This document shows positions 27,953 through 51,121 of a stretch of 64,000 nt of DNA, in pieces. The notes under the pieces were generated by a model. The model was not told the origin of the DNA. It ran no database searches and worked only from the letters and a program-made list of their open reading frames with translations. Numbering within the stretch: the stretch's first letter is position 1; each line of letters starts with the position of its first letter. A program made the translations under genes and the position numbers. Origin of the DNA: Patescibacteria group bacterium (GTDB lineage Bacteria > Patescibacteriota > Minisyncoccia > Phycocordibacterales > UBA12445); contig DOAO01000007.1 of assembly GCA_003504275.1 (NCBI GenBank), forward strand, positions 75,535 to 139,534. Reading direction: 5' to 3'.

Positions 27953-28966
27953 ATGAAAAAGGAAAATAAAAATATTGATGAAAAATTAGATAGAGGAGAG
28001 ATAGCAATTTATCAAAATAAGGACAAGGGTGTTATCGTGGAGGCTAATCTTAAGGAGGATACTATTTGGCTTACACAAGCTCAAATAACAGACATTTTCG
28101 GAGTAGACAGAAGCGTCATAACTAAGCATATTCGTAATATATTTAAAGACGGGGAGCTAGAAGAAAAAAGCAATGTGCAAAAAATGCACATTGCTAATTC
28201 TGATAAATTGGTTAATTTTTATAACTTAGACATGATTCTCTCTGTTGGTTATAGGGTTAATTCTAAACAGGCAACACAGTTTAGGGTTTGGGCGACAAAG
28301 ACTCTCAAGGAACATATCATTAAGGGATACACGTTAAACAGTAAAAGATTGGAGGAGTTGAAGGGAAAGCAGTTAAACGAATTTGAACAAGCGATTGGCC
28401 TAATAAAAAAAACCATAGACACAAAGATTCTTTCTGGAGGAGAAGAGAGTGGTCTTTTGAAGGTCATTACCGAATACGCTAATTCCTGGTTACTCTTACA
28501 GAGATATGATGAAGATGGACTGACTCTACCAAGGAAGGTAAAAAAGCCTACTTTTTCTCTTAAATATGATTTTGCGCAATTGGCTATTTTTGATTTGAAG
28601 AGAGATTTAATGAAGAAGGGAAACGCAAGTGAGCTTTTTGGTACCGAAAGGTCAAGTCTTCAGGGTATAATAGGAAATATCTACCAAACTTTTGGTGGTT
28701 CTGAATTGTATTCAAGTATAGAAGAGAAAGCGGCTCATCTTCTTTACTTTGTTATCAAGGACCATCCTTTTGCTGACGGAAATAAACGTATAGGCTCTTT
28801 TTTGTTTATTGTTTTTCTTGCACAGAATAAACATCTTTTTAGAAAGAATGGGGATAAAAAAATAAATGACAACGCTCTTGTTGCGGTTGCTTTGCTTGTA
28901 GCCGAAAGTGAGCCTTCACACAAAGATACTTTAATAAAATTGATAACAAATTTAATTAGTGATTAA
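27953..28966 (+). CDS. RhuM-family (virulence RhuM) / Fic-DOC fusion protein
   Basis: N-terminal RhuM-like region (IWLTQAQITDIFGVDRSVITKHIRNIF...SVGYRVNSKQATQFRVWATKTL). C-terminal Fic motif HPFADGNKRIGS (HxFx[DE]GNKR). Confidence 0.65.
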   Translation: MKKENKNIDEKLDRGEIAIYQNKDKGVIVEANLKEDTIWLTQAQITDIFGVDRSVITKHIRNIFKDGELEEKSNVQKMHIANSDKLVNFYNLDMILSVGYRVNSKQATQFRVWATKTLKEHIIKGYTLNSKRLEELKGKQLNEFEQAIGLIKKTIDTKILSGGEESGLLKVITEYANSWLLLQRYDEDGLTLPRKVKKPTFSLKYDFAQLAIFDLKRDLMKKGNASELFGTERSSLQGIIGNIYQTFGGSELYSSIEEKAAHLLYFVIKDHPFADGNKRIGSFLFIVFLAQNKHLFRKNGDKKINDNALVAVALLVAESEPSHKDTLIKLITNLISD

Positions 28967-36566: not shown

Positions 36567-37469
36567 ATGAAAAATAAAAAAGTAAAAGTTGTGGTCACCG
36601 GCGGTGCTGGATTCATCGGTTCAAATTTAGTTGACGCACTTATTTCTGAGGATTTTAATGTTCATGTTATTGATAATCTGTCTGGTGGCAAAAAAGAGAA
36701 TGTTAACAAAAAAGCCAAGTTACACATTGCCGACATAACGGATCTAAAACAGATAAAACCTATATTCAAAAAGGCTGAATATGTATTTCATTTGGCCGCT
36801 TTACCCAGGGTGCAATATTCCATAGAACATCCTAAGGAGACAAATGAAGCCAATGTTAATGGAACATTGAATGTGCTCATTGCGTCTAAGGGTGCAGGGG
36901 TTAAAAAAGTTGTCTATTCTGCTTCAAGTTCGGCTTATGGAGATCAAAAAATAATGCCACTTAAAGAAGATATGAAGGCAAGTCCAAAGAGTCCTTACGG
37001 CCTCCAGAAACATATAGGAGAATTATATTGTAAGATTTTTAGTGATGTTTATAGTTTGCCGACCGTTTCTTTAAGGTATTTTAATGTTTATGGACCAAGA
37101 CAAAGTTCAGAAGGCGCTTATGCTTTGGTCATCGCCAAGTTTTTAAAACAAAAAGCAGAAGGGAAGATGATGACAATTACGGGTAGCGGGAAACAAACCA
37201 GAGATTTTACACATGTGAGCGATGTCGTTCGTGCAAATATTCTTGCCATGAAAAGTAATAAGGTTGGAAAAGGGGAGGTTGTAAATATTGGATGTGGAAA
37301 TAATCAGTCTATAAATAAGATTGCGAAATTAATTGGAGGAGAGGTTGCGTATATTCCAGCAAGACTTGAGCCGAAAGACACACTAGCCGATAATTCATTG
37401 GCAAAAAAATTACTCAGTTGGGTGCCAAAGGTAAAGATAGAGGAGGGGGTAGCGTGGCTGAAAGAATAA
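36567..37469 (+). CDS. NAD-dependent epimerase/dehydratase (UDP-sugar 4-epimerase-like)
   Basis: VVVTGGAGFIGSNLVDAL Rossmann motif. YxxxK region SPYGLQKHIGE. Confidence 0.75.
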   Translation: MKNKKVKVVVTGGAGFIGSNLVDALISEDFNVHVIDNLSGGKKENVNKKAKLHIADITDLKQIKPIFKKAEYVFHLAALPRVQYSIEHPKETNEANVNGTLNVLIASKGAGVKKVVYSASSSAYGDQKIMPLKEDMKASPKSPYGLQKHIGELYCKIFSDVYSLPTVSLRYFNVYGPRQSSEGAYALVIAKFLKQKAEGKMMTITGSGKQTRDFTHVSDVVRANILAMKSNKVGKGEVVNIGCGNNQSINKIAKLIGGEVAYIPARLEPKDTLADNSLAKKLLSWVPKVKIEEGVAWLKE

Positions 37470-37479
37470 ATATCTAAAA

Positions 37480-37941
37480 ATGGCTACGATACATAGATTT
37501 GAGGATTTGATTTGTTGGAAGAAAGCTCGTGAGCTTACGAAGGAGATATATAAAGCTTTTAAGGATAGTAAAGATCGTGGGCTGAAGGACCAGATTGAAC
37601 GTGCGGCGGTTTCTGTAATGAGCAATATTGCAGAGGGTTTTGAAAGAGGCACTAAACAAGAGTTTCTGAATTATCTTTTTATCGCAAAAGGTTCGGCAGG
37701 AGAAGTAAGATCACAGCTTTATATAGCACTTGATGTTGGTTATTTAAATATTGAAACATTTAAATATTTAAATTCTCTGGCAACGGAAAATTCACGTCTC
37801 ATCCAGAGTTTTACCGAGAAGGTAAGGGGTGGTTCACGTGCGGGAACGCAATTTAAGAAACTAGACAAAAAGGACCCTTTAGAAGAAATTATAAAAGAGA
37901 AGTCCCCAGAGCTTTACGAAAAATTTTACGGAAAAAATTAA
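37480..37941 (+). CDS. four-helix-bundle protein (23S rRNA intervening-sequence-type protein family)
   Basis: MATIHRFEDLICWKKARELTKEIY...SNIAEGFERGTKQEFLNYLFIAKGSAGEVRSQLYIA fits this family. Confidence 0.55.
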   Translation: MATIHRFEDLICWKKARELTKEIYKAFKDSKDRGLKDQIERAAVSVMSNIAEGFERGTKQEFLNYLFIAKGSAGEVRSQLYIALDVGYLNIETFKYLNSLATENSRLIQSFTEKVRGGSRAGTQFKKLDKKDPLEEIIKEKSPELYEKFYGKN

Positions 37942-38158
37942 TAAATTTATAGACGTCCAGCAGGATTAGGTCATATATAATTTTTCTGACGATTAGCAGG
38001 ATTAGGCCACGAGTTACTAATTCGCTTCGCTCATAAGTACTCTCGGCCCCGCCTCAGCTCCCATTCTTGCAGAATGGGTCCCGCTTCCGGCTTTCAAATC
38101 CTGCTGTGGCGCTACAAAACAAAAAACACCCAAATGCTTTCGCATTTGAGGTGTTTGT

Positions 38159-38327
38159 TTTGTGCGCCCAGCAGGATCTTTTCTCTACGAGAACAGTATA
38201 GGTTTCCCATTTTTTCGGATTAAAATCCTCAAAAATAAGGGAGAACCTTTTCAAATCCTGACGCAAGGTAAGCAGTTACCTTGCTTGGGCGCAAGAGAAA
38301 AAACAGGCTAAAGCCTGTTTTTTGTTG
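38159..38327 (-). ncRNA. candidate structured element downstream of tRNA-Lys (trailer element copy 1)
   Basis: Closed by a stem that copies the tRNA-Lys acceptor/3' end (18-nt direct repeat 38159-38177 = 38325-38342). Internal hairpins show compensatory changes relative to copy 2. A hairpin plus T-run terminator separates it from the tRNA. Confidence 0.4.
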
Positions 38328-38400
38328 TGCGCCCAGCAGGATTTGAACCTGCGACCCTCCGCTTAAGAGGCGGTTGCTCTACCAACTGAGCTATGGGCGC
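38328..38400 (-). tRNA. tRNA-Lys (anticodon CTT)
   Basis: Cloverleaf: acceptor GCGCCCA/TGGGCGC, anticodon loop CTCTTAA, T-loop TTCAAAT. No encoded CCA. Confidence 0.85.
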
Positions 38401-38442
38401 TTGATTTGCTGATTTAAAATAACACTTTTAATCTTTTTTTTC

Positions 38443-38609
38443 AATGTGCCCGAGGTGAATCTTCCTCTACGAGGACTGTATAGCTTTCCCATTTATTCAG
38501 AGCAAAGCTCTTCATAAATAAGGGAGAAGCTTTTCGACTCCCTCACGCAGACCAAGCAGTTGGTCTGCTTCGGCATAAAATCAAAACCAAAAGATGGTTT
38601 ATGATTTTG
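38443..38609 (-). ncRNA. candidate structured element downstream of tRNA-Leu (trailer element copy 2)
   Basis: Same architecture as 38159-38327, with a conserved core ...TTCTCCCTTATTT...AAATGGGAAAG/CCTATAC...CTCGTAGAG... . Hairpins vary by paired substitutions (GCAAGGTAA/TTACCTTGC vs GCAGACCAA/TTGGTCTGC; GGATT/AATCC vs AGAGC/GCTCT). Confidence 0.4.
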
Positions 38610-38693
38610 TGCCCAGAGAGGGAGTCGAACCCTCAATCCCTTGCGGGCGACAGATTTTAAGTCTGTAGCGTATACCAATTCCGCCATCTGGGC
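38610..38693 (-). tRNA. tRNA-Leu (anticodon TAA)
   Basis: Acceptor GCCCAGA/TCTGGGC, anticodon loop CTTAAAA, long variable arm, T-loop TTCGACT. Confidence 0.85.
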
Positions 38694-38717
38694 ATTAGAC
38701 CCTTTTTTAGGATCTTG

Positions 38718-38789
38718 AGGCCTGGGGGAGAATCGAACTCCCGCATAACGGTTTTGCAGACCGTCGCTTTACCACTTAGCAACCAGGCC
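38718..38789 (-). tRNA. tRNA-Cys (anticodon GCA)
   Basis: Acceptor GGCCTGG/CCAGGCC, anticodon loop CTGCAAA, T-loop TTCGATT, U73 discriminator. Confidence 0.85.
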
Positions 38790-38794
38790 AATAT

Positions 38795-39145
38795 TTATTT
38801 ATATGCTTGATCAGCTCTGTTCGCTTGGCTTAAAAGCTCATCAATTCTTTGTCTGTGTTTCTCTCCTTTGTCTAATTCAAAATCGAAGAATGGGATAAAT
38901 TTCATATTCCAGTCTTTCTTTACATAGTCACGAAAATCACTTCGTTGTCTCTTTAGGAATTCCAGAGCTCTTTCTTCCCCGCTATCCGGAAGAACCGTAA
39001 AAAGGACCTTGGCCTCCTTCATATCAGGAGAAAGGTCAATGCTCGTTATTGTTATTATCGATTTCTTATTAGAAACTCTCTCCACGAAATCCGCGGCAAG
39101 TTTCATTAAAAGGGATGATATTTTTTCGTTTCGTCTTCCTTGCAT
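38795..39145 (-). CDS. rbfA: ribosome-binding factor A
   Basis: 116 aa with RbfA-like N-terminal sequence. Sits just downstream of infB. Confidence 0.75.
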   Translation of the reverse strand: MQGRRNEKISSLLMKLAADFVERVSNKKSIITITSIDLSPDMKEAKVLFTVLPDSGEERALEFLKRQRSDFRDYVKKDWNMKFIPFFDFELDKGEKHRQRIDELLSQANRADQAYK

Positions 39146-39288: not shown

Positions 39289-40791
39289 TTAAATCGTTTC
39301 TAAGTCAAAGGCCTCAATGATATCGCTCTCTGCAATTGTTATTTTTGAATCGATTGTGACACCGAATTGCTTTCCTTCAACAACCTCTCTCGCTTTCATT
39401 TTATTCTCTTGAAGCTCGTTTATTTCTCCTCTTCCTATCTCATTTTTCTGTCTTATTATCTTTACTTCCTTGCCTACGATAATAGATCCGGAAAGTACAG
39501 TACCTCCTACAACCTGCTTGTCTTTTTGTCTACTAAATACCCTAAGTATTCGGGCTTGTCCTAGGGTTTTCTCAACTTCCTCCTTCGGCATTCTTCTTTT
39601 TATTTCTTCCTCTATTGTATCGTTGATCTTATAAATAATATCAAAGGTCATTGGTTTTATGCCAAGTTTTTCGCCAAGCTCCATGACGTCTCTATCTGCT
39701 TTAACATTAAAACCAATCACGAGAGGCTTATCTTTGTTTCCTGCAGAGCTGACATCATTCTCTGTGATATTTCCAACCCCACAAGATATTATTCTTATCT
39801 TCACATCGTCGTTCTCCAATTTTCTAAGTTCCTTTTCAATTGCCTCAACTGAGCCTTGAAAGTCGGCTTTAAGTATTACCGGTAATACTAATTTTACATT
39901 TTCATAATTTTCTTCAGCTCTTCTTGCGCAGATAGGCGCTTGAGTCTCTGCTATTTTCTCGGCCTCTTTTTTGTTTTTTGTTGATATGAAATTTGAACCA
40001 ACAGCAGGAAGCTTACTGAATCCTGTTATTTTAACAGGGGATGAGGCGATAGCTTCCGCTATTTTTTTTCCTGCGAAATTTTCAAGGCTTCGGAGGGGTG
40101 TTACATTTCCGTCAATTATTATAAAATCTCCAACATTTAAAGTTCCATCTTTGATTATAAGTGTAGCGACACCACCTTTCTTTGGATCGAGATTTGATTC
40201 AAAGACAAATCCTTCTCCAGGTTTACTATCGTCTTTTTTAAATTCACCCATTTCAGCCATCAAGAGTAATACATCCAAGAGATCAGAAACCCCGTCTCCT
40301 GTTTTTGCAGACACGGGAACATTTGGAACATCTCCTCCATAACCTTCAAGGAATACTCCATTTGATGCCAAGTCTAATTTAGTTTTCTCAATGTCGGAAT
40401 TTGGTTTATCTATTTTATTTATTGCTACTACATAAGGAGTTCCTGAGTCCTGTATTGTTTTGATTGCTTCTATTGTTTGAACATTAACACCATCGTCAGC
40501 TGCGACAACAAGAATTATTACATCTGCAATTTGTGCTCCTCTACCCCTCATTTTGGAAAAAGCAGCATGACCAGGTGTGTCTATAAAAGTAATTCTTTTT
40601 GCCTCGCCACTCGGCATTTCGTGCATGACTTCATATGCGCTCGTGTGTTGAGTTATTCCTCCAGCCTCTTTTTCTACCGTATTGGCCTTTCTTATGTAAT
40701 CAAGAAGGGTAGATTTACCATGATCAATATGACCCATCACCGTGATGATTGGAGGTCTCTCTGTTTCAGTTTTTTGGGTCTTGTTAGTCAT
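39289..40791 (-). CDS. infB: translation initiation factor IF-2 (short form lacking N-terminal extension)
   Basis: G1 GHIDHGKST, G3 DTPGH, G4 NKID. 500 aa. Confidence 0.85.
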   Translation of the reverse strand: MTNKTQKTETERPPIITVMGHIDHGKSTLLDYIRKANTVEKEAGGITQHTSAYEVMHEMPSGEAKRITFIDTPGHAAFSKMRGRGAQIADVIILVVAADDGVNVQTIEAIKTIQDSGTPYVVAINKIDKPNSDIEKTKLDLASNGVFLEGYGGDVPNVPVSAKTGDGVSDLLDVLLLMAEMGEFKKDDSKPGEGFVFESNLDPKKGGVATLIIKDGTLNVGDFIIIDGNVTPLRSLENFAGKKIAEAIASSPVKITGFSKLPAVGSNFISTKNKKEAEKIAETQAPICARRAEENYENVKLVLPVILKADFQGSVEAIEKELRKLENDDVKIRIISCGVGNITENDVSSAGNKDKPLVIGFNVKADRDVMELGEKLGIKPMTFDIIYKINDTIEEEIKRRMPKEEVEKTLGQARILRVFSRQKDKQVVGGTVLSGSIIVGKEVKIIRQKNEIGRGEINELQENKMKAREVVEGKQFGVTIDSKITIAESDIIEAFDLETI

Positions 40792-46500: not shown

Positions 46501-46539
46501 TTGAAAATTGAATAAAGGCAGTGGAAACACTGCCTCAAT

Positions 46540-46622
46540 GCGCAGGTGGTAGAGTGGTCAATTACAACAGACTGTAAATCTGTCGGCTTCGGCCTACGAA
46601 GGTTCGAATCCTTCCCTGCGCA
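46540..46622 (+). tRNA. tRNA-Tyr (anticodon GTA)
   Basis: Acceptor GCGCAGG/CCTGCGC, anticodon loop CTGTAAA, long variable arm, T-loop TTCGAAT. Confidence 0.8.
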
Positions 46623-46628
46623 TAACGA

Positions 46629-46655: not shown

Positions 46656-46890
46656 TTTGCGCAGGAGAAAGCCATTATCCATGGCTTTCGTGAAGGATTC
46701 GAAGCCTGATTGAGTATTTTTTCTAGTTCAGAGAACGAAGAAAAAATCCAATCAGGTTACTGGTCGTGTAACGACCGAAACTCCTTCCCTGATTTTTTAA
46801 CTGCTTCATTCGCGTAAGGATTCGAAAAGCTCCTCTCATAATTTTTAGGATTTTTTAATCCGAAAAAATGGGAAAGCTATATCTGTGTAT
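46656..46890 (+). ncRNA. candidate structured element downstream of tRNA-Tyr (trailer element copy 3), with partial tRNA-Tyr copies
   Basis: Begins GCGCAGG (the tRNA-Tyr 5' acceptor copy). Contains T-arm-like fragments GAAGGATTCGAA and CTCCTTCCCTG. Core GATTCGAAAAGCTCCTCTCATAATTTTTAGGATTTTTTAATCCGAAAAAATGGGAAAGCTATA is near-identical to copies 1 and 2. Confidence 0.4.
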
Positions 46891-46951
46891 AATAATAATT
46901 AATTTGATATAATTATTGTGCATTATATTTTATCAGTAGGTTAATAATAAA

Positions 46952-49900
46952 ATGAAGAAATTTATTGTAGTAATCATCTTGCTCTGTATGAGCGTGGTTT
47001 TTATAAAAAACATCTCTGCTTCTGGTCCAACTTATTTACCTGGGAATATTCTTATAAATGAATTCATGACAAGCACGGACGTCGGAGTTTCACAGTGGTA
47101 TGAATTAATAAATACAACAGAGGATAATATTAATTTGACCGAATGGGTGTTAAGTTCGGCTGTTAATGGTGAAATCAACATTGCGACGATACTCGACGAT
47201 GACACAATACCCGCTTACGGCATTGTGGTAATAGATACAGCTTACAATCCCGCAGATGATTTCGGCGATGTCCTTCAATTAAAAGATCCTACCGCTCAGG
47301 TGATTCACGCGGTTTCTTATGGCGATCAACCGGAGCCAGCTGAGCCAAACCATACAGACGCTCCGACCGTTGGAAGTACGGTTGCTTTAATTTCTGGTGT
47401 ATGGGGTTCTGCCCCTATGCCTACCAAGGGTTGGTTTAATGATGCAATAGATTGGACTTGCGAACAAATCAATGGAATAGATTCACCGGAAGTTCCTCCG
47501 ACACTGTCTTCTGTCGCGACATGCCTTTCTTCTGAAATGAGTCTTGAGACAAATTTGGGAGAAGGGTCGCCGATAAATCCCTCTGCTTTTTCAAGCTTAT
47601 ACTTCAGGATACCTGGTATGGGGATGATAACTTTCAATGACAATCTTAATCTTTCCGATCAAAATACTGTGACGGTTATACGGTCTCTTGCAGACAAACT
47701 TATGATGAGTACGGCTGGAACGGTAGGATTAAATCCTGATGCGTGTGATCCAATGTCTGGCCCTTGTATTGTTCCTGCGCCATCAGTCTTTAAGAACGTT
47801 AACGCAACTGTGGAATTTTATGGAGTAAATGCTCTAGGATTTTATAATGTTCCACCTATTTTGGTTAAGGATGATGAGGGGGTTATAATTCCATCAGATG
47901 ATCCAAGTTACCCCACAATTACTAATCTTTCATATGATGGGGGCCAAAATGATGGAACCGTATATTTGACTACAAACCATTTCACACAGTTTACTCTGGA
48001 TAATAGTGTTTATGTAGACGATGATTTTAGCGGAGATGGATCTGAAGCTAATCCTTTCGCAACGATAGCAGAGGGTGTTGCTAATGTTCCTGAGGGAGGT
48101 ATTGTTCATGTTGCAGCAGGTTCTTATGATGGAAATATTTTAATAGACAGATCGATGACTATTCAGGGGGTGAGTAGTACGACAATTACAGTTACGGCCC
48201 CCCTTGCTTCTCACGGGTTTGATGTAAGTGCGGACAATGTAACAATATCAGGGTTCACAATAACCGGCGCGACGGGTGGTGGGGGAGGGGGAAAGGCCGG
48301 TATAAATATAAATTCTGGCGTAGATAATCTAACGATATCCGATAATATCATAGCAGGGAACATGTATGGAATAAAAACAAAGGGAGCTATCACTGCCCTT
48401 AATGTGCAAAATAATTCCATTAACAATAATTCGTATTATGGTATCTATATTATTAAGGTGGTTGGTGATTTAACGGTTGTTGCCGACTGGACACTACAAA
48501 ATAACTCCTTCGAAAATGATTCTTATAATATTTACAGAGAAGGAACGACTGGTACCTTGAATGCTGAAAATAATTATTGGGGCTGGGACAATAGAGCCTA
48601 TGTGAAAAATTCCATCTACTATGTTAGCAATAATGGAGGTGTGGATTTTGTTCCTTTCTATACTGATGAGGAAAGAACCACCCTATCTGATCTTTATTTC
48701 ACATTTGATGTTGGGGCGGATGAAATGCATACCTACTTTTCGATTCAGGATGCTATTAATGAGGCTGATTGTGAAGCATCGACTACAGGAACAAGTAATA
48801 TAATTACGGTAGGTCCAGGATATTATTCAGAGACAATAAGTATGACAAAATCTGTAGACTTAAGGGGACCTAATTCAAATATCAATCCTATAACGGATGA
48901 GCGCGCTGATGAGGCGATACTGGATGGAGTATTGCCATTAATTCAGATGACTACCAATGGGGTGGCTAACGTAACAATAAACGGATTTAAATTGGTTGGT
49001 GCCACTGATGTGGCCGTTGCTGGAGCCATATACTCCAATAAATTAAATGCACACAACATCACGATTCGCGACAACATTTTTTCTGGTAGTCAGGGGCGAT
49101 CGATCTTTACATCACAAGGAGAAGAGGGGGTGTATCGAAACAATTGGCTTATAACTGAAAATGTTTTTGAGAATGTGGGAAGTGTAGAAGGAGATCCTTT
49201 TCAGGCGGCCATGATGATTCAGAGTATCGAGGGCAGTTCAATAACGAACAATCAGATTGATAACACTTCTTATGGGGGGATTCAATTGGGTCACTCCTCC
49301 TCTACTATTATATCTGGGAATAGTGTATCTAACGTACCACGATCGGGTATTCAGGTCGCCTACAGCACAGGGATTACTGTCACAGGGAACACTATTACGA
49401 ACGCTGGTAATGGCGAAGAAATGGTGGATGTTCGAGGGTTTGGGGTTCATACCGACGACACGACTGAGAATGGAGGCATTACATTTTATAATTATGATCA
49501 GCCAAATATTACCGTCACCAACAATACAATCAGCGGGTCTTACAATGGCATCGCAATCCGCAGTGTGGGTACTTCGGAGTTGGGAAATTTGGGAGAGGAT
49601 ATCCTTATTAACGAGAACAGTATAACGGGTAGTCTTAATTTTGCGGTGGAAAATCTTGCTCCCTCCGGACAGCTTAGCGCTGAGCATAATTACTGGGGAA
49701 GCTCCCTTCCTGATTTTGGAACGATAATGTCTGGTAGTGTTGATTATAATCCTTGGTGGACGACTGCTTCCGGTCCAGATGTTGTTTCCTCTTCTAACAA
49801 AGATATTTCTAGTTTTTCTATTTCCAGTCAAGTGGGTACTACTACGATAAATCAAACTACACATACTGTCTCGATGGTTGTTCCTTTTGGTACAGACGTT

Positions 49901-51121
49901 ACTGCTTTTTCGCCCACAATAACTCACACTGGTTTATTTATTAGTCCATCAGGTGGAACAGCGCAGGACTTTACGACACCACAAACATATACTGTTACCG
50001 CAATTGATTCTTCAACCCAAGAATATACTGTTTCCGTGGAGATTTTGTCTGATACTCAAACAGCTCCAAATGATTCAGGAAGCGCTACTGCCAGTTCCAC
50101 AAAACCTCAAGTTGTAATTAAAAATCCGACACAGGAGGTAAGTGTCTCAATAGAAAGCGGAACAATCGAGCCATCTATTGATGTGAGTGCATTTATCACT
50201 GATGGGGTTGGAGATATACCAAAAATTACTATTACATCTGCCAATGCGGGAAATGCTGTTATCTCAATTCCGCCTACGACAATTACAAGTGCGAGTACTA
50301 CATGGAATGGAATTCTTGCCGCGCCTACAGTAACCTCTGTTACTTTGCCGGAAACCTCAGGAGAAACAAAGACATTAAGTACTGCAATCGAAGTCGGATT
50401 TTCGGGAGTCAAATTGTCTTTTGATAAAGGAGTTAGGATTTTATTACCAAGTCAAGCTGGTAAAAGAGTGGGATATATTAGGACTGGAATAGAATTTACT
50501 GAGATAACCGCCACATGTTCTTCTGATTCTCAATCGGCTGGAGATGCTCTTGTTGCAGATGGTGATTGTAAAATCGATGTTGGCAGTGATTTAGTTATCT
50601 GGACGAAGCATTTTACAAGTTTTGCGTCTTATACTCAGACGACAAATACAACAACACCTTCTTCGGGTGGAGGTGGTATTGCAGGAAGTGGACCTACGGC
50701 AGTCGGTTACGTGGTGACTTATCCCCCTAGTCTGGTTCAATTAGCGCCTAAACAAATGTCAGAAATGACAATAGAAGAATTGAAGGCTGAGATATATAGA
50801 CTGACAGTATTGCTTCAAAGTCTCCGTACTCAAATAGAGCCACTAATCATTCGTCCATATGGTTTCGCTGTAAATTTAGCATTCGGTTCAAAGAATGAGG
50901 ATGTGAGAAATTTGCAAAAAGTTTTAAACAGCGATCTGGACACTGCGGTTGCACTCTCTGGGGCAGGATCAAGCGGGAATGAAACAAATTTTTTTGGAAC
51001 AGCTACAAGGGTGGCGGTGTTGAAATTTCAAAAGAAGTACGGTATTGCGCAGACTGGATTTGTAGGGCCCTTGACCAGGGCAAAATTACAGGAACTGTTC
51101 GGAACACATATAAATAACTAG
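46952..51121 (+). CDS. large secreted surface protein: signal peptide, lamin-tail-like domain, parallel beta-helix repeats, C-terminal putative peptidoglycan-binding domain
   Basis: N-terminal signal peptide MKKFIVVIILLCMSVVFIKNISA. LTD-like ILINEFMTS...WYELINTTEDNINLTEWVL. Many right-handed beta-helix (PbH1-like) repeats. C-terminal PG_binding-like region GTATRVAVLKFQKKYGIAQTGFVGPLTRAKL. Confidence 0.6.
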   Translation: MKKFIVVIILLCMSVVFIKNISASGPTYLPGNILINEFMTSTDVGVSQWYELINTTEDNINLTEWVLSSAVNGEINIATILDDDTIPAYGIVVIDTAYNPADDFGDVLQLKDPTAQVIHAVSYGDQPEPAEPNHTDAPTVGSTVALISGVWGSAPMPTKGWFNDAIDWTCEQINGIDSPEVPPTLSSVATCLSSEMSLETNLGEGSPINPSAFSSLYFRIPGMGMITFNDNLNLSDQNTVTVIRSLADKLMMSTAGTVGLNPDACDPMSGPCIVPAPSVFKNVNATVEFYGVNALGFYNVPPILVKDDEGVIIPSDDPSYPTITNLSYDGGQNDGTVYLTTNHFTQFTLDNSVYVDDDFSGDGSEANPFATIAEGVANVPEGGIVHVAAGSYDGNILIDRSMTIQGVSSTTITVTAPLASHGFDVSADNVTISGFTITGATGGGGGGKAGININSGVDNLTISDNIIAGNMYGIKTKGAITALNVQNNSINNNSYYGIYIIKVVGDLTVVADWTLQNNSFENDSYNIYREGTTGTLNAENNYWGWDNRAYVKNSIYYVSNNGGVDFVPFYTDEERTTLSDLYFTFDVGADEMHTYFSIQDAINEADCEASTTGTSNIITVGPGYYSETISMTKSVDLRGPNSNINPITDERADEAILDGVLPLIQMTTNGVANVTINGFKLVGATDVAVAGAIYSNKLNAHNITIRDNIFSGSQGRSIFTSQGEEGVYRNNWLITENVFENVGSVEGDPFQAAMMIQSIEGSSITNNQIDNTSYGGIQLGHSSSTIISGNSVSNVPRSGIQVAYSTGITVTGNTITNAGNGEEMVDVRGFGVHTDDTTENGGITFYNYDQPNITVTNNTISGSYNGIAIRSVGTSELGNLGEDILINENSITGSLNFAVENLAPSGQLSAEHNYWGSSLPDFGTIMSGSVDYNPWWTTASGPDVVSSSNKDISSFSISSQVGTTTINQTTHTVSMVVPFGTDVTAFSPTITHTGLFISPSGGTAQDFTTPQTYTVTAIDSSTQEYTVSVEILSDTQTAPNDSGSATASSTKPQVVIKNPTQEVSVSIESGTIEPSIDVSAFITDGVGDIPKITITSANAGNAVISIPPTTITSASTTWNGILAAPTVTSVTLPETSGETKTLSTAIEVGFSGVKLSFDKGVRILLPSQAGKRVGYIRTGIEFTEITATCSSDSQSAGDALVADGDCKIDVGSDLVIWTKHFTSFASYTQTTNTTTPSSGGGGIAGSGPTAVGYVVTYPPSLVQLAPKQMSEMTIEELKAEIYRLTVLLQSLRTQIEPLIIRPYGFAVNLAFGSKNEDVRNLQKVLNSDLDTAVALSGAGSSGNETNFFGTATRVAVLKFQKKYGIAQTGFVGPLTRAKLQELFGTHINN

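Follow-up and report, generated by a model that had tools for sequence, protein, structure and literature searches.

Repeated structured elements with arms matched to the adjacent tRNA 3' end in Patescibacteria genomes

Known occupants of tRNA 3' ends and the tRNA-Lys locus

Small elements that occupy the 3' ends of tRNA genes are known. The tRNA-gene integrative elements (P4-like prophages and islands) insert at the tRNA 3' end, leave the tRNA intact, are bounded by direct repeats and can be repeated in tandem. The elements described here share all of these traits. They lie behind the tRNA-Leu, tRNA-Lys and tRNA-Tyr genes of a 64,000-nt stretch of DNA from a Patescibacteria group bacterium (hereafter the window; GenBank assembly GCA_003504275.1, contig DOAO01000007.1, positions 75,535 to 139,534), and they belong to a family that is apparently undescribed. 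Unlike the integrative elements, they contain neither integrase nor cargo, measure 110-190 nt, carry an extra, inverted copy of the tRNA end together with a covarying core, and place one scaffold behind at least 14 types of tRNA. A full-text literature search returned no description of a family with this architecture, the nearest paper dealing with group I introns in the tRNA anticodon loop (PMC13011429).

Other known systems resemble the elements in more restricted ways. The primer-binding site of retroviruses and long terminal repeat retrotransposons is likewise a complement of some 18-19 nt to the 3' end of a specific tRNA, covers the acceptor strand, the T-stem strand and part of the T-loop, stands just after a direct repeat and follows the tRNA used. 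In the elements, however, the corresponding arm lacks a complement of CCA, is interrupted by a hairpin in the most common class (type A) and lies beside the matching tRNA gene, and, in contrast to a tRNA-primed retroelement, the open reading frames (ORFs) of the window include no reverse transcriptase. The integron attC hairpin and the attP of CTX phage also present two inverted target copies around a variable structured region, occur in arrays (as the elements do) and rebuild by folding a double-stranded copy of the target, whereas here the arms differ with each tRNA and offer no evident fixed site for a protein, neither an IntI nor an Xer context was observed, and the core, with its G.U pairs, GUA triloop and tandem G.A, is much more conserved and closer to RNA in character. 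An acceptor-like helix on a T-stem-like helix recalls the tRNA-like RNAs (the tRNA-like domain of tmRNA, mascRNA, YrlA and viral tRNA-like structures), and, like the spacer RNAs of tRNA operons (E. coli 3'ETS-leuZ), the elements are encoded in or after a tRNA transcription unit; they differ in having a large three-way junction in place of the T-loop, a helix that specifically reproduces the adjacent tRNA and a closing helix that in many cases is not complete. Short segments that vary with the flanking target on a conserved scaffold are also found in the exon-binding sequences (EBS) of group II introns, in IS110 bridge RNA and in TnpB right-end RNA, but here there is no protein gene, pairing joins the matched segments to one another, neither size nor fold is related and no Rfam hit was obtained. 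Lastly, miniature inverted-repeat transposable elements (MITEs), repetitive extragenic palindromes (REP) and bacterial interspersed mosaic elements (BIME) are small, non-coding, multi-copy, palindromic, intergenic and near terminators, as are the elements, whose inverted repeats are instead copied from the adjacent tRNA and which stand strictly behind tRNA 3' ends and have a complex covarying interior. A MITE was rejected as an identification because the terminal inverted-repeat arms differ with each tRNA instead of being constant across copies. In at least one defining test the elements depart from the integrative elements, the primer-binding sites and the folded recombination sites and, as it appears, from the tRNA-like RNAs.

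A preliminary description of this DNA had drawn attention to a pile-up of at least four partial copies of the tRNA-Lys 3' end between that gene and one for a four-helix-bundle protein, and had taken it for the scar of repeated integration and excision. All four copies were recovered by direct reading of the region: AGCAGGATTAGG occurs twice in the same orientation (37959-37970 and 37995-38006) as part of a 33-nt direct repeat (D3), the inverted TTCAAATCCTGCTGTGGCGCTA occupies 38093-38114 and includes 14 nt (38093-38106) that repeat tRNA-Lys 38334-38347 exactly in inverted orientation (repeat I2), and the 18-nt exact repeat is that of 38160-38177 with 38325-38342. By our estimate, exact matches of 14 and 18 nt inside about 900 nt lie far above chance expectation. 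The spacing had been underestimated, as 386 nt rather than 230 separate the four-helix-bundle gene, whose stop codon ends at 37941, from the tRNA, whose 3' end is at 38328; the span flagged therefore misses a hairpin (h1) and most of an element that we call X2 (38179-38292). The four fragments are best read as the arms of two tandem structured elements, X2 and X3, and not as scars of large elements. On the minus strand, which carries the tRNA, the order is tRNA-Lys, h1, X2 (38163-38292), a further hairpin (h2) and X3 (37952-38112). Among related contigs, 51 of 96 tRNAs are followed within 220 nt by an inverted copy, at least 10 nt long, of their own tail, against 3 of 96 in the upstream control.

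The earlier interpretation survives in part. DNA has been added repeatedly at the tRNA 3' end: tRNA-end direct repeats delimit each unit, and unit content differs between related genomes, where the locus is not invariant and the same four tRNAs carry differing element sets in four genomes. The proposed origin from integrase-borne elements does not hold, as what lies between the repeats is a folded element, conserved and covarying, that recurs behind tRNAs of at least 14 amino-acid types, and a Pfam domain scan of 48 window ORFs found no integrase, transposase, reverse transcriptase or recombinase in any of them. Nor did an integrase-bearing occupant appear elsewhere in the two gaps checked between a tRNA and a distant element (in L063 and L034; L-numbers denote related loci or contigs), neither of which holds an integrase-sized ORF; judged by eye, without a domain search, the genes in these gaps look like a NUDIX hydrolase and a PurN-like formyltransferase.

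Layout, arms and fold of the elements

Our preferred reading, to which we give slightly more credence than doubt, is that the units form a family of non-autonomous structured elements, apparently undescribed, that are matched to tRNA tails and are gained and lost. A unit is about 110-170 nt long (up to 190 nt), was free of cargo in more than 80 cases, and starts after the discriminator base of a tRNA gene or after a previous unit. On the tRNA strand it consists of a hairpin, usually terminator-like, a 5' arm, a conserved core with a three-way junction and a 3' arm. The final ~19 nt of the tRNA recur in the 5' arm as their reverse complement, which in type A is cut in two by a hairpin (P2), and the 3' arm repeats the tRNA 3' end. 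In the window, X1 (behind tRNA-Leu), X2 and X4 (behind tRNA-Tyr) have one common shape, with fold z-scores of -5 to -6, in which a closing helix, P2 and an extended T-stem-like helix (P3) lead to a three-way junction from which P4 and P5 branch. The core of X3 is of another kind (type B), and its arms follow the same logic.

Copies were located by core-pattern searches, which gathered about 80 of type A and 10 of type B, all from named Patescibacteria genomes or metagenome-assembled genomes or from unassigned metagenome contigs. The type-A core pattern has matches in nine species-representative genomes (labelled as six Patescibacteria-group, with Paceibacterota, Candidatus Saccharibacteria, Yonathbacteria and others, one Minisyncoccia and one just 'bacterium'), and all nine lie downstream of a same-strand tRNA, at the distance of 50-140 nt that also holds for most real metagenome matches. 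A looser pattern matched 70 metagenome contigs, about eight of them by chance in coding-looking sequence; the remaining matches are mostly behind a tRNA, the others standing at a contig edge or by apparent decayed tRNA 3' remnants, as called from the copies examined in L022, L063 and L035. A covariance model built from 51 copies (alignment A2) turned up additional copies within the same contigs. The 44 non-identical tRNA-element pairs comprise 12 amino-acid types, and the total over all copies reaches at least 14 when Trp (type B, L018) and Phe are counted. In an Rfam scan of 37400-39000 at E up to 10, the tRNAs alone passed and other hits fell far under their gathering scores, so that membership of a known Rfam RNA family was discarded, with no hit at or near the gathering score; the same scan upstream of orphan copies found no further RNA gene. 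Viral contigs and phage and plasmid records yielded no element, the tRNA-Lys part being the sole match.

Each element has arms that fit the tRNA behind which it stands. The stretch of exact inverted repeat shared with the tail of that tRNA is 12 nt long at the median (5 of T-stem and 7 of T-loop), compared with 5 nt against tRNAs of other types, and the 3' direct copy has a median of 11.5 nt, with a maximum of 22 nt inside the 26-nt tail examined and 26 nt with the trailer included (L011). The exact complement to the tRNA 3' end measures 12-20 nt and does not extend to CCA. The anti-T-loop segment agrees with its own tRNA's T-loop, read as reverse complement, in 36 of 43 copies (permutation mean 12.1, maximum 23), and the T-stem part matches the own tRNA in 32 of 43 (permutation mean 2.3). 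At L061 and L081, whose tRNA T-stems include a G.U pair, the arm complements the 3' strand and does not copy the 5' strand. The arm also tracks changes of the T-loop between orthologues: at tRNA-Leu, loop and arm read TTCGACT/AGTCGAA in the window and TTCGATT/AATCGAA in L004, and at tRNA-Lys the combinations are TTCAAAT/ATTTGAA, TTCGAAT/ATTCGAA and TTCGATT/AATCGAA. An acceptor-like helix of 7 bp on a T-stem-like helix with a discriminator end is present in X2, X1, L011, L013 and others. Roughly 40% of copies have two wholly intact arms; 16 of 38 have a complete acceptor part (7/7) in the 5' arm, and the own 3' 12-mer is perfect in 16 of 38 as well. Two copies are chimeric: at L060 4117-4239 the 5' arm fits the upstream tRNA-Arg and the 3' arm (GATTCCCTCC…) is apparently from another tRNA, and at L020 1444-1565 the 5' arm does not fit the upstream tRNA-Arg.

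Compensatory change is widespread in the cores. In type A (alignment A2), 17 of 25 consensus pairs show double compensatory changes, and the GAA junction, the GUA triloop and the tandem G.A pairs are invariant. All nine pairs of P2 covary across 35 copies, around a conserved CUGC loop. In type B (alignment A3, 10 copies, from Lys, Tyr, Trp, Arg and Leu tRNAs), double compensatory changes affect 17 of 28 pairs, and one conserved G.U pair is kept in 9 of the 10 copies. The type-A alignment contains 28 G.U cells against 10 A.C cells, an excess that favours the tRNA-sense strand as the folding strand. These patterns argue that the fold is under selection on that strand; its features are typical of RNA, and a folded single DNA strand may account for them too. 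The loops of alignment A2 (P5, the P4 tip and the extra hairpin of some copies) contain recurrent UGUA or GUAC, as in CUGUAAG, AUGUACUCAU and GCGUACUCGC, which may be a candidate protein-binding signal. The P5 loop CUGUAAG resembles the anticodon loop of tRNA-Tyr and contains UGU, the motif recognised by tRNA-guanine transglycosylase. A hammerhead reading of the UGA…GAA loop was discarded, as this is a symmetric internal loop of tandem G.A and the junction has an unsuitable order (by manual reading, its strand lengths and sequences do not fit either), and self-cleaving ribozymes (hammerhead, twister, pistol, hatchet, hepatitis delta virus-like) gave no Rfam hit. The conserved AAGGGAGAA and AUGGGAAAC were also considered as a short ORF or Shine-Dalgarno sequence; this was rejected because the stems covary and there is no conserved start codon or frame.

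Gain, loss and competing explanations

The window is part of a Paceibacterota-like metagenome scaffold. Syntenic loci, found through RbfA homologues that are 65-74% identical, have the same four tRNAs (Cys, Leu, Lys and Tyr) and differing sets of elements. L004 has elements behind all four, with two of type B behind Tyr. In L006 the element at Cys lacks a terminator ahead of it, the one at Leu has another core, a type-B element adjoins tRNA-Lys directly, and the element at Tyr is of type A. In L008, Cys and Leu are without elements, Lys has one, and a type-B copy lies about 465 nt from Tyr. In an alignment, L008 is an empty site from tRNA-Leu to the tRNA-Lys promoter, where the window and L004 hold some 165 nt extra, delimited by the repeat of the tRNA end. 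Each element is a discrete insertion or deletion. The promoter-like site of tRNA-Lys is kept at the empty site of L008 (10670-10720) and in part in L004, where the -35 TTGAAA is the same and the -10 reads TACTTT. Since this predicted site lies just past X1, X1 belongs to the tRNA-Leu unit, and, given its conservation, tRNA-Leu with X1 and tRNA-Lys appear to be separate transcription units. An attempt to derive the order of insertion at tRNA-Lys from hairpin positions was abandoned, because one hairpin precedes X2 in the window and follows it in L004, and no simple insertion-order model fits both placements. Just upstream of the real tRNA-Cys, L006 (10339-10382) and L008 (10379-10423) have a mini tRNA-Cys-like hairpin of about 44 nt, in which the acceptor 5' strand and the first part of the D-arm are followed by a GC hairpin and the acceptor 3' strand; the window has none.

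Scaffolds are shared across tRNA types and repeated in arrays. On the 14-kb contig L085, two tandem units behind tRNA-Ser are about 97% identical, and Ser-linked and Gly-linked units have hairpin, P2 and core framework in common, differing in the three tRNA-matching segments alone. The arrays of L062 and L077 combine type A, type B and fragments. The nearest neighbour of a core is found at a different type of tRNA in 26 cases and at the same type in 4, with identities up to 0.93-0.96. In the two pairs that were closest among those examined (L013/L060 and L015/L061), high identity extends as a block from the anti-T-loop to the T-loop-derived GAWTCC, and in other pairs it reaches into P2. Such repeats probably break short-read assemblies: L002, a second and independent assembly of this DNA from another sample, ends inside the X2 core (at the equivalent of window 38196), in a stretch common to X1, and L011 has a run of N immediately after a repeated unit.

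The explanation that we propose joins three processes, and as a whole we hold it tentatively, as somewhat more apt to be wrong than right. New units would enter by recombination inside the common tRNA 3'-end segment, which would leave the tRNA intact and displace the older 3' end downstream; on this view the pile-up at tRNA-Lys would consist of two units that arrived in succession. The element would be transcribed at a low level by read-through from the tRNA promoter, and its RNA would fold as a tRNA-like acceptor/T helix bearing the core. Gene conversion between the palindrome arms (tRNA, hairpin and arm) would hold the 5' arm to the sequence of the tRNA. A bolder version, possible although on the unlikely side, sees a self-spreading structured RNA or DNA with programmable arms, in which the 5' arm serves as a guide or primer-binding site and is re-templated from the tRNA on moving.

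Several points weigh against these proposals. No enzyme for insertion was identified, no promoter was predicted for any element, and a terminator-like hairpin with a two-way look usually stands between tRNA and element. Copying or fold-back models fail on the three re-matched segments (both parts of the 5' arm and the 3' arm) with P2 staying in place, and fold-back or snap-back synthesis as the full origin of the 5' arm was rejected since P2 interrupts the arm. In 27 of 43 copies the 5' arm complements the upstream tRNA perfectly, as against 8 of 43 for the element's own 3' arm, and the tRNA-like closing helix is complete in about 40-60% of copies; the better fit to the upstream tRNA and the frequent incompleteness of the helix weaken the idea of RNA processing. 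The conservation of the core is partly built in, because the copies were found through core patterns. Moreover, the same pattern could arise without transposition, from old copies at each tRNA whose scaffolds were homogenised by gene conversion.

In a rival view, in our opinion unlikely, the elements are host-useful, non-mobile RNA genes of tRNA operons, an old and vertically inherited companion RNA for each tRNA. The tRNA-like helix would allow RNase P, RNase Z and the CCA-adding enzyme to excise and finish the RNA, the likeness of the scaffolds would come from intragenomic gene conversion, and absences would be deletions between direct repeats. The orthologous X1 of the window and L004, whose RbfA proteins are just 70% identical, speaks for this view, since its fold has been kept by compensatory changes in P2 and P5, but the core at tRNA-Tyr varies even among close relatives (C and a truncated A; B and B; A; B at 465 nt). 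Strong covariation in three independent hairpins, conserved CUGC, GUA and tandem G.A motifs and a type-A order (acceptor strand, 1-2 nt, P2, 2-3 nt, T-stem strand) that mirrors tRNA topology would suit a functional RNA; many copies, however, have decayed arms or are shortened (X5), near-identical tandem units occur, and no conserved downstream gene or other functional link was seen. The Cys-linked copy of L006, with no preceding terminator, also speaks for the view, and the terminator-like hairpin that usually precedes the elements speaks against it. Another view, distinctly unlikely in our estimation, makes the 5' arm a guide or primer-binding site that pairs with the 3' ~19 nt of the tRNA or with the tRNA gene, the tRNA acting as primer or the arm guiding an RNA-directed recombinase or transposase encoded elsewhere, with the target re-setting the arms. 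Retroviral primer-binding sites are re-copied from the primer in each cycle, and the arm does complement the tRNA 3' strand rather than copy the 5' strand, fits the tRNA better than the element's own 3' arm and follows the T-loop changes of orthologues even where pairing within the element breaks. Units of one genome that differ solely in the tRNA-matching segments, and the layout of L011 (direct repeat, complement of the tRNA end, body, direct repeat), point the same way. Yet the arm has no CCA complement and is interrupted by P2, the window contains no reverse transcriptase, recombinase or RNA-guided enzyme gene (Cas/TnpB-like), and no element was found in the viral contigs searched. In addition, no group II introns were reported in a survey of 95 complete Patescibacteria genomes (PMC13011429).

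We consider very improbable the reading of the preliminary description, in which the repeats are attL/attR scars of repeated integration by integrase-bearing islands or prophages and the conserved parts would be arm-type sites of attP. It accounts for the direct repeats of the tRNA 3' end that bound every unit and for a content that varies between relatives, and the attP of tRNA-targeting elements is known to contain a copy of the tRNA 3' end. It fails on the covariation, the lack of recombinase and cargo and the extra inverted copy: covarying stems imply a folded strand and not protein sites on double-stranded DNA, units of 110-190 nt are without cargo in more than 80 cases, no integrase is encoded in the window or the checked gaps, an inverted tRNA-end copy is not a feature of att sites, and phage, plasmid and viral collections match the tRNA alone. 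Least probable of all, and scarcely credible, is that there is no element and that terminator hairpins have grown beside tRNA genes through quasi-palindrome correction by template switching. Mutation by template switching within palindromes is well established, and at several loci tRNA end, trailer, hairpin and 5' arm form near-perfect long palindromes. As a full account it is contradicted by what it leaves unexplained, namely the covarying P2, P4 and P5, the 3' direct copy and the cores shared across genomes and tRNAs; the upkeep of the 5' arm may be its work.

If the elements are real RNAs, they would represent a widespread, undescribed structured-RNA family tied to tRNA genes in Patescibacteria, and some 150 nt behind many tRNAs is a real cost in such tiny genomes. 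If they are mobile, they would target tRNA tails with changing target-matching parts on a constant scaffold, a case of interest for RNA-guided recombination, retroelement priming and tRNA mimicry. Were the arms indeed programmable, one scaffold could home to any tRNA tail without a protein gene of its own. On the practical side, the tRNA-fragment repeats that the elements create are easily mistaken for prophage att sites.

Features of the window and its genes

The coordinates of the elements, the tRNAs and the associated hairpins are collected in Table 1.

Table 1. Elements, tRNA genes and neighbouring features in the window.
Feature	Coordinates	Strand	Remarks
Four-helix-bundle gene	37480..37941	+	PF05635; neighbour, outside the element family
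X3 outer (second) 3' arm copy, CCTAATCCTGCTGGACGTC	37952..37970	-	Decayed tRNA-Lys T-stem and acceptor 3' strand; repeat D3
X3 first 3' arm copy, CCTAATCCTGCTAATCGTC	37988..38006	-	Pairs with X3 5' arm; P3 helix of the type-B consensus
X3 core, type B, three-way junction, …CGGAAGCGGG…GGGAGCTGAGGCGGGG…GAGTACTTA…TTAGTAACTCG…	38007..38092	-	Alignment A3, n=10
X3 5' arm, GCGCCACAGCAGGATTTGAA	38093..38112	-	Reverse complement of last ~19 nt of tRNA-Lys, plus one base (T-loop, T-stem 3' strand, acceptor 3' strand); repeat I2
Hairpin h2, between X2 and X3	38115..38160	.	Terminator-like in either direction; predicted site 38129-38150
X2 3' arm, GATCCTGCTGGGCGCAC	38162..38178	-	Direct copy of tRNA-Lys 3' end including discriminator base and trailer
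X2 core, type A	38179..38249	-	GAA junction, P4 (UUCUCCCUUAUUU…AAAUGGGAAA, tandem G.A pairs, apical hairpin), UAC junction, P5 with GUA triloop
X2 5' arm, T part, CAGGATTTGAA	38250..38260	-	Reverse complement of tRNA-Lys T-loop and T-stem 3' strand; repeat I10
X2 P2 hairpin, CAAGGUAA-CUGC-UUACCUUG	38264..38283	-	Splits 5' arm into two halves
X2 5' arm, acceptor part, GCGCCCA	38286..38292	-	Complements tRNA-Lys acceptor 3' strand and X2's own 3' arm; first bases of X2, same sequence as the tRNA-Lys acceptor 5' strand
Hairpin h1, between tRNA-Lys and X2, AAAAAACAGGC-TTTA-GCCTGTTTTTT	38294..38326	.	Terminator-like; inverted repeat I1
tRNA-Lys (CTT), matched by X2 and X3	38328..38400	-	ARAGORN; Rfam tRNA 73.7 bits
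Predicted promoter-like site of tRNA-Lys	38416..38444	-	TTGAAA-17-TATTTT, TG ahead of -10
X1, type A, matched to tRNA-Leu	38447..38574	-	Covariance model 114 bits; fold z-score -5.2; repeat I9; 5' arm T part GAGGGAGTCGAA at 38533-38544; P2 at 38548-38567
tRNA-Leu (TAA), matched by X1	38610..38693	-	Intervening hairpin ~38576-38608
tRNA-Tyr (GTA), matched by X4 and X5	46539..46623	+	tRNA prediction
X4, third core variant (type C), matched to tRNA-Tyr	46659..46791	+	Common architecture; fold z-score -6.1; GUA triloop; 5' arm GAAGGATTCGAA at 46692-46703
X5, shortened type-A copy	46800..46885	+	TAAGGATTCGAA at 46815-46826; covariance-model match 46808-46924, 52.3 bits

X2 itself has a fold z-score of -6.3 and a covariance-model score of 101.8 bits, and the extended hairpin formed by its acceptor part and the tRNA end has a predicted energy of -29.8 kcal/mol (z-score -6.9). 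The orthologous X3 arm in L006 is a 19-nt exact reverse complement of the tRNA tail, and a hairpin near-identical to h2 stands ahead of type-B elements in L077 and L006. X5 runs into the AT-rich promoter region of a gene for a 1389-aa surface protein (46952-51121).

The neighbouring gene does belong, as had been supposed, to the four-helix-bundle family of 23S rRNA intervening sequences (PF05635, E 1.9e-34), but its part in a hotspot of mobile DNA looks coincidental: the gene is missing at the syntenic L006 and L008, which keep their elements. In about 609 kb of element-bearing loci, homologues were found only in the syntenic L004/L005 and in L043 and L058, at the last two away from the elements (about 4 kb off in L043, and a short fragment about 2.6 kb off in L058). 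A link through this PF05635 neighbour to diversity-generating retroelements and their Avd protein was discarded, as the window has no reverse transcriptase and the gene is unlinked to the elements elsewhere. The protein is 89% identical between the window (37480-37941) and L004 (11144-11605), where the adjacent RbfA is 70% identical; such conservation combined with patchy presence suggests recent transfer or unusually strong constraint.

The rest of the window contains chiefly cell-envelope glycosylation and methyltransferase genes, plus housekeeping genes. Positions 1-32300 form an island of methyltransferases, glycosyltransferases, two asparagine-synthase-like genes and radical SAM/SPASM genes, together with NeuB, a Wzy-like ligase and a RhuM/Fic gene (27953-28966), and this island is probably a variable surface-glycan locus. 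On the other side of the tRNA-Leu gene, the IF-2 homologue (39289-40791, minus strand) is a protein of 500 aa that does without the long N-terminal region of typical bacterial IF-2, a shortness consistent with a reduced genome.

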